From the IMG/VR virus record IMGVR_UViG_3300022777_000128: DNA of 64,000 bases; one strand, written 5' to 3'. The notes below the pieces were generated by a model that searched no databases, was not told the origin of the DNA, and saw nothing but the letters and a program-made list of their open reading frames with translations. The position numbers were made by a program, and so were the translations under genes. Below, in pieces: positions 12,227 through 54,127 of the stretch (position 1 is the first letter of the stretch; every line of letters starts with the position of its first letter). The DNA is from a virus.

Positions 12227-12552
12227 GCGTCCAGAACCTCACCAATGTAATTGAGGCGCTTCGAAGCCGGGTCGATAGGTTAGAGGAGGACCGCACGCGG
12301 ATACAGAACCTCTTAGATGAGGAGCGAGAGCGTGCCCGCAACCTTGAGGAGGAAAAGTCGAAGCTCGTCGAGGAGGTCGCCGAGGGGCGGAACCGGATCG
12401 AGCGAATGCAGGAGGAGATTCGCAAACTCAAGCGCGACCTCAATGGTGCGCGGGAGGAGGTAGAGAACATGAAGGCGGGCGGGAAGACGGCCCTCTATGT
12501 GACCGAGGGGTATGACTGGGCAAGCCCGCCCTACCGAAAAGACAACTCGTAG
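12058..12552 (+). CDS. N-terminal TM plus coiled-coil protein (lysis accessory candidate)
   Basis: IAIITAIVTAVGAYF followed by a long E/R/K heptad region. Confidence 0.65.
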   Translation: MEIWAFVQQNTIAIITAIVTAVGAYFGARSYFLAERKKQEEEIGRIKQLLVGSSEVSVQNLTNVIEALRSRVDRLEEDRTRIQNLLDEERERARNLEEEKSKLVEEVAEGRNRIERMQEEIRKLKRDLNGAREEVENMKAGGKTALYVTEGYDWASPPYRKDNS

Positions 12553-12554
12553 CC

Positions 12555-13304
12555 ATGTCGTTCTTTGATTCATTTTTCGGGGCGGTGGGATCCGGTCTCG
12601 GGCGAGCCGTGGCCTATGTGCTTATCGGCGCGATTCTCATAGGCAGCGGATACGCTCTGTACCGGTACTGGGCGCCGGGGCCAGAGACCGACCCGCAGGA
12701 TGTGACCGAGGTGGAGCCCGGGTTGCCCCCGATCTTCGACGAGTCGAGTGTCGTGCGACCGGACTCGACTGGAGAGTGGATCATCGAGACCGTGCCGGGG
12801 GACTTTGACGCGACGCTAACCATCGACCTTCCGGATTCGGACTCTACGGAAAACGAACAGGAATATGTGTCCATCGGTCTTCGGGAGGGTGCCGAGCAGT
12901 TCTTCCCCGAGCTTCCCGGCCAACGGAAGCTCCCCCTCGACGCGGTAGTGATTGGCGGCTATGGAAAAGAGAACGTGCGGATCAAGGCGCAGCCCCAGCC
13001 GATTATTGCCTTTGACCTCCAGGCCGAGGTTGGGCTTTCGCTCTTTGCATCCGACGCCAGAACCGGCGCCGCCGTTGGCGTGACTGGCGCCCGATTCTTT
13101 GGGGTCCGTCTTGGCGGATTCCTTGCCGCGGATCCGCGAGGCGAGGCCGACCGGATCAACATCCAAGTTGGCGCCGGTCCTTACGCGAGTCTTCGCGTGT
13201 ACGGCCCGTTCGGGATTGGGGTCGGAAAGGACTTAACGAGCGCCCCGCTGACCAACTTGGAGGGGGTCACGTTCACGATCACCGCGGATCTGCCGCTTCC
13301 GTAA
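12555..13304 (+). CDS. TM protein with C-terminal amphipathic beta-strands (spanin-like candidate)
   Basis: N-terminal TM, acidic linker, Gly/aromatic alternating strands at the C-terminus. Confidence 0.5.
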   Translation: MSFFDSFFGAVGSGLGRAVAYVLIGAILIGSGYALYRYWAPGPETDPQDVTEVEPGLPPIFDESSVVRPDSTGEWIIETVPGDFDATLTIDLPDSDSTENEQEYVSIGLREGAEQFFPELPGQRKLPLDAVVIGGYGKENVRIKAQPQPIIAFDLQAEVGLSLFASDARTGAAVGVTGARFFGVRLGGFLAADPRGEADRINIQVGAGPYASLRVYGPFGIGVGKDLTSAPLTNLEGVTFTITADLPLP

Positions 13305-13343
13305 CACCTCACACGCGAGACGCTCACTACTGACAACAACGCC

Positions 13344-14060
13344 GTGGCCCAGCCGACCGAGCGCGAAATCGACTCTACTGCCTTTTCTGCCCTCGTCGAA
13401 ATGACCGGAGGGGTGACCTGGACAGAGATTCCAGCCGACATACGTGAACAGTACAAGTTTCGTCGGCGGACCAATCTGCCCGGAGCCGAGAAATTCGGCA
13501 CGCCCGTACAGGTAAAGGTTTCTGCCACGCCCCCCGACGGCGGACCCCGCTTCACGAATTGGATCTGGAGCCCGGAGTTTCCGGCGGCACGCAAACAGCA
13601 AAACGGTCTGCTCATTCCTTGGGGCGCCCAGGAAGAGCGCCCGCCTTCCTACGCCGAGGCGCTCCCGGCGGCCCCTCCGCTCACGCTCCCAACCGGGGAG
13701 ATCAACATTCCCGACGGCGGGTCGGTACAGCCGCCCCCACCGCCAGACGAGCCGACTTCCGGAAGTGGCACCAGCGACGGCGGCTCCGACGACGGCTTCG
13801 AAGTCGGGGAGGCCATCGCGGCCTTCGCCAACGGGATCTTCGAGCAGCGCCGCCGCAGCGGCTCTCGATTGCCCACGAGACCGCAGACGCCAGTTCGCTC
13901 CGCAGGAATCGGGTCGACGCTCGGGATCATCGCGCTTGTCGGCGGCGTGGGCCTTGCGGCCTACCTCCTCACGTCGAGCGCTACCAGACCGGCCCCGCCG
14001 CCCCGCCGGGCGCTCCCACGGGAGAACGAGAAGAGCGAAGACGAGGAGGAAGACTACTAA
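13344..14060 (+). CDS. Pro-rich membrane-anchored protein
   Basis: PPPPP linker and TM IGSTLGIIALVGGVGLAAYLL. Confidence 0.7.
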   Translation: MAQPTEREIDSTAFSALVEMTGGVTWTEIPADIREQYKFRRRTNLPGAEKFGTPVQVKVSATPPDGGPRFTNWIWSPEFPAARKQQNGLLIPWGAQEERPPSYAEALPAAPPLTLPTGEINIPDGGSVQPPPPPDEPTSGSGTSDGGSDDGFEVGEAIAAFANGIFEQRRRSGSRLPTRPQTPVRSAGIGSTLGIIALVGGVGLAAYLLTSSATRPAPPPRRALPRENEKSEDEEEDY

Positions 14061-26720: not shown

Positions 26721-26750
26721 TGGCTCATGTGGTCGTGAGAAAGAAAGCAG

Positions 26751-26881
26751 TGCCCCAGGTCGGACTCGAACCGACAATGTGGGTGGGAATATCATCCCGA
26801 AGCCAACCGACCGTCTCCCCGGCCCTTGACAACTCTACCACAGGACAGCATCCCGCGTATAACCGTTTCCGCCACTGGGGC
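26751..26881 (-). ncRNA. tRNA-like RNA with a 57-nt loop in place of the anticodon loop
   Basis: Acceptor stem GCCCCAG/CTGGGGC, D-arm TGGCGGAAACGGTTATACGC, T-arm GTCGG-TTCGAGT-CCGAC, anticodon stem GGATG/TATTC. No CCA. Confidence 0.75.
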
Positions 26882-27619: not shown

Positions 27620-28042
27620 CTACTGGTGGGGGTTCTGCTCGTTCATGTCGAACAATCCAAGTTGAGTTTCTTCCTCCAACTCACCTCGCTCTTCATCTTC
27701 GTTCGACTCGTCGCCCTCCGGTTCAGTTGTAGATTCCGCGTCCGACTTCGGTTGTTCGAGATTTAGCTGCCAGAGATGATTCGGCTCGCCGAACTCCCCG
27801 TCACGCTTGTTGTCCAACTTCTCCAGCACACCTTCATCGGTGAGGTTCGTGATAGCACGTCGAACCGAAGTAATGGGAACGCCCTCGAATACCGCATCCT
27901 TCACCTCGAATGGCGTGAATCGCTTTTCCGGGTGCGCCTCAAAGAAACGTCTGACCTTGTTCTCTTGACTGGCAGCATTGGCAATCCGCTCTGCCAAGTC
28001 GTCGCCGACCAGATCAGTCGTGTTATAGTAGTGATGGCCCAT
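27620..28042 (-). CDS. Winged-HTH phage protein with QLGLF tail
   Basis: YYNTT..FTPFEV..VPITSVRRAITNLTDEGVLEK..GEFGEPNHLW. ATG 28042. Confidence 0.7.
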   Translation of the reverse strand: MGHHYYNTTDLVGDDLAERIANAASQENKVRRFFEAHPEKRFTPFEVKDAVFEGVPITSVRRAITNLTDEGVLEKLDNKRDGEFGEPNHLWQLNLEQPKSDAESTTEPEGDESNEDEERGELEEETQLGLFDMNEQNPHQ

Positions 28043-28050
28043 CGCTCTCG

Positions 28051-28157
28051 TCGTTGTCCCTGCAAAAAGCACTACCGGGTGCCTCCGCCGTCCCTGCGAA
28101 GGGAGAGGTCACCGCCATCCCTGCGAAACCCTTGACCATGTGACCGCCATCCCTGCG
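28051..28157 (-). repeat. Mini-array of four repeat-core motifs directly after the tnpB stop codon
   Basis: Cores start at 28051, 28085, 28112 and 28144 (+ strand YCGYYRTCCCTGC), spaced 34/27/32 nt with unique sequence between. Confidence 0.8.
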
Positions 28158-29372
28158 TCAACCTTCGTAGTCTTCGACCGGCATGGTCCGATCTTCCTCG
28201 TGCTCCAGGTAGTAATTGTTCAGTGCGTTGATCTCCCGGTCGACCTCGAAGGGGCACTCCGGGCAATCGAACGTCGATTGGCCGCCAAGTTCTTCGTAGA
28301 CGTGCCCACAAGCGGAGCACCGCATCGACGCCTCGACCTCCGGGTCGACCACATGCACGTCGACGCCCGCCCACTCGGACTTGTACTTTAGCTGCCGGTA
28401 GATTTCGCCCATATTCGCATTGGCCATCCGGCGGTTGATCTTCCGCTCAATCTTCCGGGGCATGTCTTCGAATCCCTGCTCGAAGAGATCCGCGACATTC
28501 CAGTCCTGGATGATGAGGGTCTGGGGACGAATGTCGTAGGCGACCTTTGCGGTCAGCTTATGCGTCTGGTCCGAACGGAGGTGACGAAGCTGCTGGTAGG
28601 TCCGGGCAAGGTTCGTGCGTGCGCGTTCCCACCCGCCAGAGCCATTCGAGCGGCGGGATAGCTGCCGGTGCTGCCGGTCTGCCCGAGACATGAGGTCAAA
28701 CACGCGGTCCATCGGAAGGTCCTCTGTTCGAGCCGCGCGGGCGGCCTCTCGCATCGCTACCCACACGCGAACGCCCGGATGTACCGCAAGCGTGTCGGGC
28801 CGCTCCTCTTCTGGGGCGAGCCGATCTTCATCGATGGGATTTCCGACGACCGCCGAGGAGGAGATTACCCAGTGGCTCGCGTCTTTCTTGATCGTGACTC
28901 GCTTGTGGGAGACCTCTTCGCCGGTAGGGATGTAGTCGGGCTCGACGAGCTTGAGTCCCGGGCTCCGCATCTTCGGAAACTCGACGTGGGATCCGGAGAA
29001 GTCACAAGTGTATCCCTGGACCGAGAGCGTCGGGCCGTGGCGCTCGTAGCGCCGCTTCGGGTGGCCGGGACTCTCTCCGGCGGAGACGCGGCGGAAAAAC
29101 CCCTGGTACGCCTCGAAGAGGTCTTTGAGTGCGTAGTCGCCGACCTTCCGCGGAGCATCTGCCCAATGCGAAAAGCCGCCGTCCCCCCGCCTCTCCGTAA
29201 ACATGCGGCTCACTTCCGTCTTGGAAAGGTTCTTCCCCTCTTCCTCGTAGGCGCGCTCTTTTATCGAACGCGCCCAGTTGTAGATGCCCCGACGGATCCT
29301 CCCCCAGTGACGGAGGCGCTCGGCTTGCTCCTCGGTCGGTTCGATTCGGGTTTTGAATGCTTTTCGGCTCAT
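28158..29372 (-). CDS. tnpB: Nuclease-inactivated TnpB/Cas12f-like RNA-guided protein
   Basis: IS605 OrfB HTH (AFKTRIEPTEEQ..YNWA), REC/WED region and CSACG..CPEC zinc ribbon. RuvC motifs read LAVHPG (D>H), IIQDW (E>Q) and DREINA (D>E). Confidence 0.9.
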   Translation of the reverse strand: MSRKAFKTRIEPTEEQAERLRHWGRIRRGIYNWARSIKERAYEEEGKNLSKTEVSRMFTERRGDGGFSHWADAPRKVGDYALKDLFEAYQGFFRRVSAGESPGHPKRRYERHGPTLSVQGYTCDFSGSHVEFPKMRSPGLKLVEPDYIPTGEEVSHKRVTIKKDASHWVISSSAVVGNPIDEDRLAPEEERPDTLAVHPGVRVWVAMREAARAARTEDLPMDRVFDLMSRADRQHRQLSRRSNGSGGWERARTNLARTYQQLRHLRSDQTHKLTAKVAYDIRPQTLIIQDWNVADLFEQGFEDMPRKIERKINRRMANANMGEIYRQLKYKSEWAGVDVHVVDPEVEASMRCSACGHVYEELGGQSTFDCPECPFEVDREINALNNYYLEHEEDRTMPVEDYEG

Positions 29373-29411: not shown

Positions 29412-30284
29412 CCGTTGTCCCTGCGTGTGTAGCGAAACCCCCACCCTTCAAGCCGTCCGCTCGTTGTCCCTGTGCGCGTTGGAAAACCCTCAAGCTCTCC
29501 GTAAAACGGGGTCGGGTTCTGCCGCTGACCCTGCGTGCTTCAAGTAAACAGAAACCCACCCGACACCGCTGTCCCTGCGGGCGTGGAAAAGCCTTCTTCC
29601 ACGAGTCCCGTTGTCCCTGCGTGCAACACTGTCCTCCTGGGACCACCACCGTTGTCCCTGCGGCGTGGAGAAACCCTGCACACGCATCCAAGGGCGATCT
29701 TGACCGTTGTCCCTGCGCGTGTGGGGCGTCCCGGCTCCGCAGTGTGCACGTCCTTTTCTCCCTCCCGTTGTCCCTGCGCGTGTGGGGCGTCCCTTGGTTC
29801 TCCCTCTCTCTGCCGTCATCCCTGCGGTGATCTTCGCTACTGGCCGTCTCGTCGCCATCCCTGCGTGGGTGGAGAGGCCCGTGAGCCGGTCGGGTTTGTC
29901 CTGGTCGGAGGCCCGTTGTCCCTGCGCGTGTGGAGAAACCCACAATACCCTACCCTCGACGCTCACAGTCAGACCGTTGTCCCTGCGGGCGTGGAGGAAC
30001 CACCGACATGCAGCAGGGAGAGATTCCACGAGACCCGTTGTCCCTGCGCGAGTAGAGAAAACCAAGTCGAGTCGCTTGTGTGAACCGGCGCCGTTGTCCC
30101 TACGTGCGTGGGAAAACCGAATAATTCCGAACCTTCCGCCTGGGTCTTTCTTCCGTTGTCCCTGCGCGCGTGCAGAAACCCTAAGTCCTTCTGTGAGAGC
30201 CTCACTCTCCGAACCGTTGTCCCTGCGCGCGTAGAGAAGCCCAACAATCTCGGCGACGACCCCGAACTGCGCCCGTTATCCCTG
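29412..30284. CRISPR. Degenerate type I-E-like CRISPR array, 17 repeat cores, no cas genes
   Basis: Repeat about CCGTTGTCCCTGCGCGTGTGGAGAAACCC (29 nt) starting at 29412, 29461, 29522, 29566, 29608, 29649, 29704, 29765, 29813, 29852, 29913, 29974, 30035, 30091, 30153, 30214 and 30273. Six periods are exactly 61 nt and the spacers are unique. Confidence 0.88.
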
Positions 30285-30299
30285 GAAAGGAAAGAACAA

Positions 30300-30530
30300 A
30301 AAAGTGCCCCTCCCCGCGCAGGGTTCGACCATCAACCCGCTTGCACCGGGTCCGGCGACGCCCCGCAGGGAAGAGAAGCGGCGCGTTTCCCGGCGTCTTA
30401 TGTGCGGTCAAGTCGCTTTACGCGGGGATCTGTGTCCCGCTGGTTCCGGCCCAACGCTCCGTACCGTCCGGGGAGAGGCACATCTTAATGTCTCTTTCTT
30501 CGATACCTCGAAGTAAAGCAGCTTTAATAG
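30300..30530 (-). promoter_or_regulatory. Leader-like region with inverted partial repeats and a TAAAGC-A-GCTTTA palindrome
   Basis: Inverted repeat fragments at 30315-30323 and 30357-30371. Palindrome within 30512-30530 resembles the shared promoter motif. Confidence 0.45.
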
Positions 30531-30576
30531 GTTTCTATAAGGGAGGCTTCTTCACAGTTTCTAAACGATACCAGCC

Positions 30577-31044
30577 TCAAAATAGGCTCTCAAGCTCGGG
30601 CTCTTCCTTTATCTCTTGCAGGAGGGCCGTTTTGTCGAGCGTGCGGTTGTGCTCCAGCTTCAATGCGGCAATCTGGGCAGTTCGGTCGCCTCCATCCTCC
30701 ATGAAGGCAGAAACAAGCAGCATGAGCTTCTCCAGGTCCTTATCGTCGACGGTCTCGACCAACTCCCCGTCCTCGTTGAGACGGGCCGCGTAGCCCCACT
30801 CGTCCCCGGTCGGAATCTCATCGGCTTCAACCATCTCATTTGTGATCGGCTTGATGTCGAGCAAGTCCCAGGCATCGATGTCACAGCCGTAGAATACCTC
30901 TCGCCCGTCCTGGTCCAGGATGCGCCCGATGTCCGCCGCAAGATCGTCGAGCGTGCGGTGGATTCGGGTCGCGCCGTCGGGCTCTACGACCTGGAAGACA
31001 GTATCGTCGGTGAACGGAAGCTCATCGGTGGCCATGTCGCTCAT
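30577..31044 (-). CDS. Acidic hypothetical protein
   Basis: Tiles the operon. Confidence 0.6.
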   Translation of the reverse strand: MSDMATDELPFTDDTVFQVVEPDGATRIHRTLDDLAADIGRILDQDGREVFYGCDIDAWDLLDIKPITNEMVEADEIPTGDEWGYAARLNEDGELVETVDDKDLEKLMLLVSAFMEDGGDRTAQIAALKLEHNRTLDKTALLQEIKEEPELESLF

Positions 31045-36997: not shown

Positions 36998-37015
36998 CCG
37001 TTGCCCCTGCGCACG
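36998..37015. repeat. Solitary copy of the array repeat core
   Basis: CCGTTGCCCCTGCGCACG is 16/18 identical to the repeats at 30153 and 30214. Confidence 0.55.
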
Positions 37016-53956: not shown

Positions 53957-53986
53957 GGCACTTTAGCTTTGCAGGTGAAGGAATTG

Positions 53987-54127
53987 CAGCCGGGGGCGGA
54001 GTCGAACCGCCAACGCCTTGCCCGTTGCCGCCTGTTGGGGCGGGAGAAGCCCGTTGTCCCTGCGGTGTTGCGCTTTGGGGTCGGCAGGCAATACCAGTGG
54101 GCACAGTACCCGTTCTGCCACCCGGCC
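53987..54127 (-). ncRNA. tRNA-like RNA with a ~75-nt insert containing the CRISPR-like repeat core
   Basis: Acceptor stem GGCCGGG/CCCGGCT, D-stem GCAG/CTGT, T-arm GGCGG-TTCGACT-CCGCC. A GCCC/GGGC stem closes an insert holding CCGCAGGGACAACGG (54051-54065). Confidence 0.75.

Follow-up and report, generated by a model that had tools for sequence, protein, structure and literature searches.

A virus-borne TnpB homologue with substituted RuvC residues, its degenerate type I-E-like arrays and a conserved structured RNA: a candidate multiplexed RNA-guided DNA-binding system

The TnpB homologue, its arrays and the adjacent structured RNA

The stretch of viral DNA analyzed here (IMG/VR record IMGVR_UViG_3300022777_000128; 64 kb, the whole of which is termed the window) encodes on its minus strand a homologue of TnpB. 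This gene is accompanied on both sides by arrays of a short conserved sequence alternating with unique spacers and, beyond the larger array, by a conserved structured RNA. The short sequence is termed the "core" when read on the plus strand, as CCGTTGTCCCTGC, and the "handle" when read in the sense of tnpB, as GCAGGGAYRRCGG. The elements concerned are:

28051..28157, minus strand: mini-array of four collapsed units, starting 1 nt past the tnpB stop codon, with spacings of 32, 27 and 34 nt
28158..29372, minus strand: TnpB homologue of 404 amino acids, predicted to be nuclease-dead (NF040570, Pfam, residue-level alignment)
29412..30285, minus strand: main array of 17 units, each with a conserved 13-nt handle and, after it, a unique spacer; 5' half of the type I-E-like repeat degenerate or deleted
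30297..30481, minus strand: conserved structured non-coding RNA of ~185 nt, a candidate omega-RNA scaffold or partner resembling a trans-activating CRISPR RNA (tracrRNA; CRISPR, clustered regularly interspaced short palindromic repeats), recognized by comparison

The 404-amino-acid protein scores 121.8 bits with the guided_TnpB profile NF040570 (cutoff 100), and Pfam recognizes in it the HTH_OrfB_IS605 and Cas12f1-like_TNB domains, with OrfB_IS605 at 30.1, just below its cutoff of 30.5. This is the domain architecture of a TnpB, and the chains of ISDra2 TnpB match the protein at E 2e-23; weak matches are seen to Cas12f chains (E 5e-4 or weaker), UnCas12m4a (E 0.003) and LaTranC (E 0.0095). Residue-level alignment to ISDra2 TnpB (8h1j/8exa) and to the designed TnpB-like nuclease 9yyg places H197 (AVHPG), a Gln (IIQDW) and a Glu (DRE) at the positions of ISDra2 D191, E278 and D361, such that the D-E-D triad is not intact. 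The three substitutions are conserved in every close relative (P0001-4, P0012-14 and P0016), and the His at RuvC-I is kept in relatives down to 31% identity; the more basal P0015 and P0017 retain E at RuvC-II and D or E at RuvC-III. Based on these residues, the protein is predicted to be nuclease-dead.

In the main array, the core was found at 16 of the 17 units, the 17th (29852) being recovered by a scan of the minus strand; 10 copies are exact and the remaining ones differ by 1-3 mismatches. The tnpB strand holds all of the copies, and the opposite strand of the whole window has none at ≤2 mismatches. The start-to-start spacings are 49, 61, 44, 42, 41, 55, 61, 48, 39, 61, 61, 61, 56, 62, 61 and 59 nt; half of these 16 intervals (8/16) measure 59-62 nt, as against the 61-nt period of an E. 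coli control array. As an earlier note on this DNA had described, the long intervals are mostly clustered at the tnpB-distal end, with intervals of 39-56 nt elsewhere. The same note had called 13 nt of the repeat nearly invariant and the rest variable, and this is borne out by the mean pairwise identity in the window, which amounts to 0.87 for the 13-nt core versus 0.39 for the remaining 16 nt; the information profile across the repeat shows a step at the same place. Among units with a 58-63-nt period the remaining 16 nt reach an identity of 0.70, and the spacers have an identity of 0.27, which is the random background. The units at 29522, 29608, 29813 and 30273 are without the other repeat half and retain the core, again as first described. 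On the whole, the repeats are heterogeneous and the periods irregular, and recent spacer acquisition is not visible in this array. The feature also reaches beyond the segment 29412-30284 on which that description had centered, to the mini-array at 28051-28157 and to solitary copies of the core at 54051 (exact) and 36998 (1 mismatch).

The family of this TnpB protein is rare. The relatives that were fetched comprise all those with usable flanking sequence, most of them short metagenomic contigs, and are listed with the identity of their proteins to that of the window:

L013: 86% identical, co-oriented array
L011/L012: 55% identical, 86-kb phage-like contig, co-oriented arrays
L014: 54% identical, co-oriented array
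L036: 47% identical, co-oriented array
L037: 35% identical, one repeat, at the contig end
L043/L044: 34% identical, co-oriented arrays
L041: 33% identical, co-oriented array
L045/L046: 31% identical, 67-kb phage-like contig, co-oriented arrays

Every homologue with usable flanks, across 31-86% identity, has co-oriented arrays with a 61-nt period, and the conserved adjacent array that marks type V-U systems (V-U24-like) is seen in at least 8 independent contig families. In L011 (11271), L014 (3395) and L013 (1239) an array starts at the tnpB stop or overlaps it, and in L011 three arrays surround two TnpB-like genes. The earlier description of the array as co-oriented with tnpB, with the 13 nt lying next to the spacer in the manner of a trimmed handle, is thus supported by the relatives. 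An even spread of variation over the repeat in related genomes had been set beforehand as the observation that would speak for neutral decay; the variation is uneven, with the same half conserved in the window, L011 and L036, where the identity of the 3' 13 nt is 0.85-0.89 versus 0.39-0.46 for the 5' 16 nt and 0.25-0.27 for the spacers. In L045/L046 the same half is conserved with a different handle, ...GGGTGGTGG, and the arrays of L041 and L043 are homogeneous and ordinary-looking.

The structured RNA at 30297-30481 is ~70% identical to L011 9731-9919 and L014 1910-2094, which lie just upstream of the homologues there. Its fold is a multi-helix structure closed by a long-range helix of 13-15 bp, with a U-run at the end (RNAalifold, -70.8 kcal/mol). 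A covariance model derived from it (R1) recovers diverged copies in L038 and L037, starting 12-14 nt past the tnpB-like stop. In the resulting five-sequence alignment, which was itself fitted to the covariance model, 95% of the pair cells hold standard pairs and 19 of the 53 pairs are changed on both sides; none of 500 shuffles reaches the observed covariation, and slid registers pair at 32-50%. An origin of this RNA as a coding remnant of tnpB was ruled out by blastx and blastn. In the window the scaffold is placed upstream of the gene, beyond the array; its homologue in L037 and L038 directly follows the stop, which is the position of an omega-RNA. In the window, L014 and L011 no more than 12-35 nt separate the U-run from a handle, after which come about 35 nt, so that the scaffold-handle-guide order of an omega-RNA is kept in all three, and the order in L037 is gene, scaffold and first I-E-like repeat, at the contig end. 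We read 30297-30481 as the omega-RNA scaffold of the clade, which in the window lineage would have been separated from the 3' end of the gene.

The apical loop of the scaffold is partly complementary to the handle (UCCCUGCG in the window, CGUCAUCCC in L011 and UUAUCCC in L014), and a second anti-handle segment is situated beside the closing helix (CCCUGCGC against CCCUGUGC). Furthermore, a C/U difference in the closing-helix segment tracks the commonest repeat variants, GCGCAGGG and GCACAGGG. Based on these complementarities, we hypothesize that handle and scaffold may contact each other.

Kinship with type I-E arrays and genomic context

Metagenomes scanned for pairs of cores at a distance of 61 nt yielded regular arrays with repeats ending in GCAGGGATGGCGG or GCAGGGACGACGG. 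In L022 and L032 the arrays are immediately followed by cas1e (TIGR03638, E 6e-106) and cas2, which run in the same direction. The 13-mer GCAGGGATGGCGG, in which these Cas1e/Cas2e-linked repeats with a 61-nt period end, occurs exactly in the window mini-array, relating the window repeat to them and supporting the kinship with type I-E that the earlier note had proposed. Orientation was not taken from similarity to the E. coli repeat alone, given that the I-E repeat is nearly palindromic and its strands look alike; the cas-linked arrays were used instead. In L022, L032 and L031 the repeats read ...CAGGGAYGRCGG in the sense of the cas genes. The degenerate repeats of L022 are found at the cas1 end, which is accordingly the distal one and implies a leader at the far end, and L031 has a CasE-like gene on the strand of its array. 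In E. coli K-12 (CRISPR-1) the repeat, read in the cas sense, likewise ends in ...CGGGGATAAACCG, followed by the spacer. Judged from these sequences, the native I-E reading direction, ending in ...GGGAYRRCGG, is that of the minus (tnpB) strand in the window. Hence, the proposal that the array is now read in reverse is not supported, the plus strand having looked I-E-like because of the near-palindromic nature of these repeats. Recent capture of an I-E array is not favored either: with 61-nt arrays in relatives down to 31% identity, the link is an old one, ancestral to the whole TnpB clade (31-86% identity) rather than recently acquired.

The pairing of the stem is better on the plus (antisense) strand, with 5.0 of 6 pairs formed through G-U, than on the minus (sense) strand, with 4.1 of 6, in agreement with the earlier observation of a plus-strand stem surviving through G-U pairs. 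The consensus repeat nevertheless folds no better than shuffles on either strand (plus -3.6 and minus -3.9 kcal/mol; z +0.2 and +0.4), and what had been taken for a conflict between hairpin and orientation signals thus involves no real hairpin signal. A stable repeat stem-loop of the kind that serves as Cas6e substrate is not seen, and the repeat hairpin is effectively gone. As for I-E cas genes, tblastn of the window with eight E. coli K-12 Cas proteins and the L022 Cas1e returned nothing credible for these queries (best CasB, E 0.004). The presence of homogeneous arrays in some clade members suggests that spacers are, or formerly were, added by a type I-E adaptation module in trans.

Several further observations concern these arrays and their neighbors. 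The degenerate trailer repeats at L022 1400-1660 keep ...GGGATGACGG, with decayed 5' parts, and the L022 array abuts the upstream side of cas1-cas2, an unusual locus order which is common to L032. A different, IS607-like TnpB family (≥605 amino acids; L027 2-1819, L024 and L028 2-1144) is found directly upstream of homogeneous I-E-type arrays that share the same repeat end, and its RuvC-III Asp is replaced by Arg; the 83.5-kb contig with L024 also contains L031, which encodes the CasE-like protein. Within L011, a second TnpB/Cas12f-like gene (12349-13641), unrelated and only 22-27% identical to the first, lies between the same arrays; its RuvC-II Glu is aligned to Gly, with the RuvC-I and RuvC-III Asp retained. 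One spacer is present twice in the same L011 array (11634 and 12294), which indicates a segmental duplication inside it. Helix-turn-helix (HTH) genes adjoin L037 and L041. No homologue of the 404-amino-acid protein is encoded by either of the two genomes to which L017 and L015 belong. Searches of IMG/VR recovered no TnpB relative, no scaffold pattern and no paired-core pattern, its 16-mer matches being single and probably due to chance. A scan of GTDB genomes for two cores 61 nt apart gave 7 matches, all of them unrelated repeats or tRNA genes, and blastn against a phage collection found no match to the locus or the arrays.

Elsewhere in the window, a promoter match and further copies of the handle were noted:

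30565..30593, minus strand: weak sigma-70-like promoter match, TTGAGA-17-TATCGT with TG, a consensus match only, upstream of the scaffold
36998..37010, minus strand: solitary handle-like copy GCAGGGGCAACGG with 1 mismatch, 6 nt downstream of TGTTATAAT (extended -10-like), read from sequence
53986..54127, minus strand: intron-containing tRNA-Ala(GGC) with a 66-nt intron (ARAGORN, introns allowed), a possible extra guide unit
26750..26881, minus strand: intron-containing tRNA-Ile(GAT) with a 55-nt intron (ARAGORN, introns allowed)

L011 and L014 have TTGACA-16-TTTAAT at the position matching the window promoter match. The motif CTTTGACAT (GAGACAT in the window) occurs just upstream of the scaffold in the window (~30490), L011 (9714) and L014 (1896), and just downstream of it in L037 (3016) and L038 (~959), as if the region had been circularly permuted. 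The solitary copy at 36998-37010 is situated in an apparently divergent intergenic region. The intron of the tRNA-Ala contains an exact handle at 54051-54063, with 22 nt from there to the intron end, and such a unit would be a guide-like piece released via tRNA splicing; that of the tRNA-Ile contains the handle-like GCCGGGGAGACGG (3 mismatches), followed by 16 nt to the intron end. These short introns in the anticodon loop suggest a host of archaeal type. The proteins flanking the locus (27620-28042 and 30577-31044, both on the minus strand) are very acidic (isoelectric point, pI, 4.1-4.4; D+E 24-26%), and many other open reading frames (ORFs) of the window have a pI of 4.1-5.7; the acidic proteins hint at a halophilic host. 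The 140-amino-acid protein encoded after the mini-array shows a winged-helix (GntR) match, below threshold only. The contig as a whole is virus- or mobile-element-like, with DUF5131, an HNH endonuclease, two primase-like genes and most ORFs without a family. Pfam analysis of nine neighboring ORFs left seven without a match, the others being the DUF5131 and HNH proteins, and identified no transposase; transposon ends were not part of this search. No Rfam family reaches its gathering threshold in the window, and the matches around the locus are at chance level only.

Proposed function and competing explanations

Given the above observations, we consider it reasonably probable that the array supplies guide RNAs to a TnpB/Cas12-like protein with an inactivated RuvC, borne by a virus or mobile element, the two together forming a multiplexed RNA-guided DNA-binding system of the type V-U/TldR-like kind. 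Under this proposal the minus strand would be transcribed, and each unit would give rise to an RNA with the handle directly 5' of its guide. The handle would dock the guide onto the protein jointly with the ~185-nt scaffold RNA, which could be supplied in trans, in the manner of a tracrRNA, or, for the first unit, possibly in cis via read-through of the U-run. As the D/E/D residues are replaced by H/Q/E, the complex would be expected to bind matching DNA without cutting it, and it may thereby block transcription or replication of targets in the host or in rival elements. Of the ancestral type I-E-like repeat the effector would need the guide-proximal half alone, leaving the distal half to decay and the units to shrink from 61 to about 27-55 nt. 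Such a system would explain why only half of the repeat is conserved, why units have collapsed, why the handles keep strictly to one strand, why arrays flank the gene on both sides and why the scaffold is conserved.

Several results weigh against this proposal. Searches for spacer targets in the window and the related loci, using 20-nt guides (≤4 mismatches) and 10-14-nt seeds, gave nothing above shuffled guides; a phage collection likewise yielded no targets above background and a plasmid collection only chance-level matches of 28-34 nt. Some mini-array guides are only 14-21 nt long. The handle-scaffold pairings amount to only 7-9 bp, with a register that varies from lineage to lineage, and L037 does not show them. 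The Cas1e-linked trailer repeats of L022 are also best conserved at their 3' end, such that the half-conservation may in part reflect an intrinsic constraint or decay mode of I-E repeats. Finally, H/Q/E could in principle constitute a rearranged rather than a dead site.

The last of these points leads to the possibility that the TnpB homologue is still a nuclease with a rearranged active site, the array then serving conventional type V interference against rival elements. Rearranged RuvC sites that probably keep activity are known in several TnpB clades (PMC10691335), and the strict, non-random conservation of His, Gln and Glu, as well as the acidic residues at RuvC-II and RuvC-III in the basal P0015 and P0017, would be compatible with this. 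However, the window protein has substitutions at each of the three canonical metal ligands, no acidic residue that might compensate for them was identified (the neighboring Asp of IIQDW is not conserved in P0013), and a triple substitution of this kind is treated as inactivation in the literature (PMC10691335); we accordingly regard continued cleavage as quite improbable. A functionless relic, namely a decaying I-E-type array beside which a tnpB element happened to land, with its uneven conservation arising from the mode of decay, recombination or gene conversion, also appears distinctly unlikely. It would be in keeping with the heterogeneous repeats, the irregular periods, the lack of visible recent acquisition, the failure to find spacer targets in the window and related loci, and the similar 3' bias of the L022 trailer repeats. 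Yet three lineages with unrelated spacers and with TnpBs of no more than 47-55% identity preserve the same half at 85-89%, while the other half drops towards the spacer background; moreover, units without any distal half still retain the core, and arrays persist on both sides of the gene and, in L011, by two genes.

It is likewise unlikely, in our estimate, that the array serves or subverts a type I-E system of the host, either as a viral mini-array that loads CRISPR RNAs (crRNAs) into Cascade against rivals or as a decoy, similar to the RNA anti-CRISPRs (Racr), that titrates Cascade subunits via the conserved 5'-handle portion. The conserved 13 nt do match the 3' stem arm together with the 7 nt from which the 5' handle of an I-E crRNA is formed (in E. 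coli ...CGGGG, then ATAAACCG), arrays linked to Cas1e/Cas2e in metagenomes have exactly the same end and a 61-nt period, and the carrier contig is virus-like. Cas6e, however, needs a stem-loop, and it is the 5' arm and the loop that form the variable part of the repeat, the consensus of which folds no better than shuffles; nor does the window contain an I-E cas homologue detectable with the E. coli Cas proteins and the L022 Cas1e. A Racr would be a faithful repeat mimic including the Cas6-bound hairpin, and here the hairpin-forming half is the variable half; the decoy version is without positive support, since the pair of stem arms that Cas6e would need is not conserved. For a decoy, moreover, there would be no need of dozens of unique spacers, or of a link to a dead TnpB and a scaffold that is conserved over 31-86% divergence.

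A more specific form of the preferred guide-source proposal, which we put forward tentatively and hold to be rather doubtful, is a natural viral split omega-RNA. In this version a dead TnpB would operate with one trans-acting ~185-nt scaffold and dozens of guides bearing 13-nt handles, the arrays would be built by hijacking the type I-E Cas1-Cas2 of the host, and extra guides would come from tRNA introns (tRNA-Ala at 53986-54127, perhaps also tRNA-Ile at 26750-26881). If true, the virus would reprogram many host or rival genes at once.

Significance and comparison with known systems

Nuclease-dead relatives of TnpB and Cas12 constitute a new class of natural RNA-guided regulators, of which the present locus, with its relatives, would represent a multiplexed form carried by a virus. 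The collapsed units would amount to a natural deletion series, indicating that an omega-derived effector needs 13 nt beside the guide and that the rest of the CRISPR repeat is free to decay. Some members of the clade have the scaffold where an omega-RNA would be encoded and others have it detached, upstream of the gene, and the arrays are homogeneous and I-E-like in some members and collapsed in the viruses. The clade may therefore provide a snapshot of a fixed-guide omega-RNA turning into a scaffold accompanied by an array. Moreover, it suggests that arrays of another CRISPR type can be used by a type V-like effector, and points to a compact multiplex guide format for DNA binders of TnpB size.

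Among known systems, the type I-E arrays (E. coli K-12 CRISPR-1, L022 and L032) share with that of the window the 29+32-nt period, to which half of the window intervals keep, and the Cas1e-linked arrays the repeat 3' end GCAGGGATGGCGG; the E. coli K-12 repeat, ending in ...CGGGGATAAACCG, bears an overall resemblance. The window array differs from them in the lack of a stable hairpin, the heterogeneous repeats, the collapsed units and the absence of detected cas genes in the window.

Nuclease-dead relatives of TnpB and Cas12f are established RNA-guided regulators (PMC13622181, PMC13472631, PMC10691335). Of these, TldR (PMC13622181; bioRxiv 10.1101/2023.11.30.569447) is comparable in its TnpB-like size, inactivated RuvC and, in one clade, phage-borne occurrence, as well as in the expected DNA binding by an RNA guide placed 3' of the scaffold. 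In contrast, PMC13622181 describes a single guide and does not contain the word "array", whereas the present locus comprises 17+4 handle-spacer units, with an I-E-like period of 61 nt, and encodes its scaffold apart from them, upstream; the dead triad is thus shared and the guide organization is different. The dead Cas12f forms with arrays or chimeric guide RNAs (gRNAs; PMC13472631) and Cas12m are similarly inactivated type V effectors which keep arrays and for which a regulation of transcription has been proposed or shown. CRISPR repeats resemble the gRNA scaffold, and chimeric single guides have been proposed to emerge from arrays (PMC13472631). The present clade is set apart from these by its weak sequence similarity, the lack of a sigma-factor partner here and its I-E-type repeats. 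The TranC proteins (LaTranC 9jfo; bioRxiv 10.1101/2025.09.28.678669) have been placed early on the path from TnpB to type V CRISPR systems, as intermediates, and the present locus has both an omega-RNA-like scaffold-handle-guide arrangement and array units with only a handle. They are, however, used as nucleases, the similarity to LaTranC is marginal (E 0.0095), and the window protein is predicted to be dead.

Many TnpB branches have given rise to array-linked type V-U systems, some with altered RuvC sites, and one of these, V-U24, combines a non-canonical RuvC-I site with a neighboring HTH protein (PMC10691335). The type V-U* systems, including V-U24, share with the present clade a small TnpB-like protein with a conserved link to arrays, adaptation genes being absent; virus-borne degenerate arrays, arrays on both sides of the gene and an upstream scaffold are features of the present locus that do not figure in the portions of PMC10691335 compared here. 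The likeness to V-U24, drawn from its description only, lies in the non-canonical RuvC-I and the HTH neighbor. With His at RuvC-I and HTH genes beside L037 and L041, the clade thus appears, in its sequence features, to fit the published description of array-linked V-U systems with an altered RuvC.

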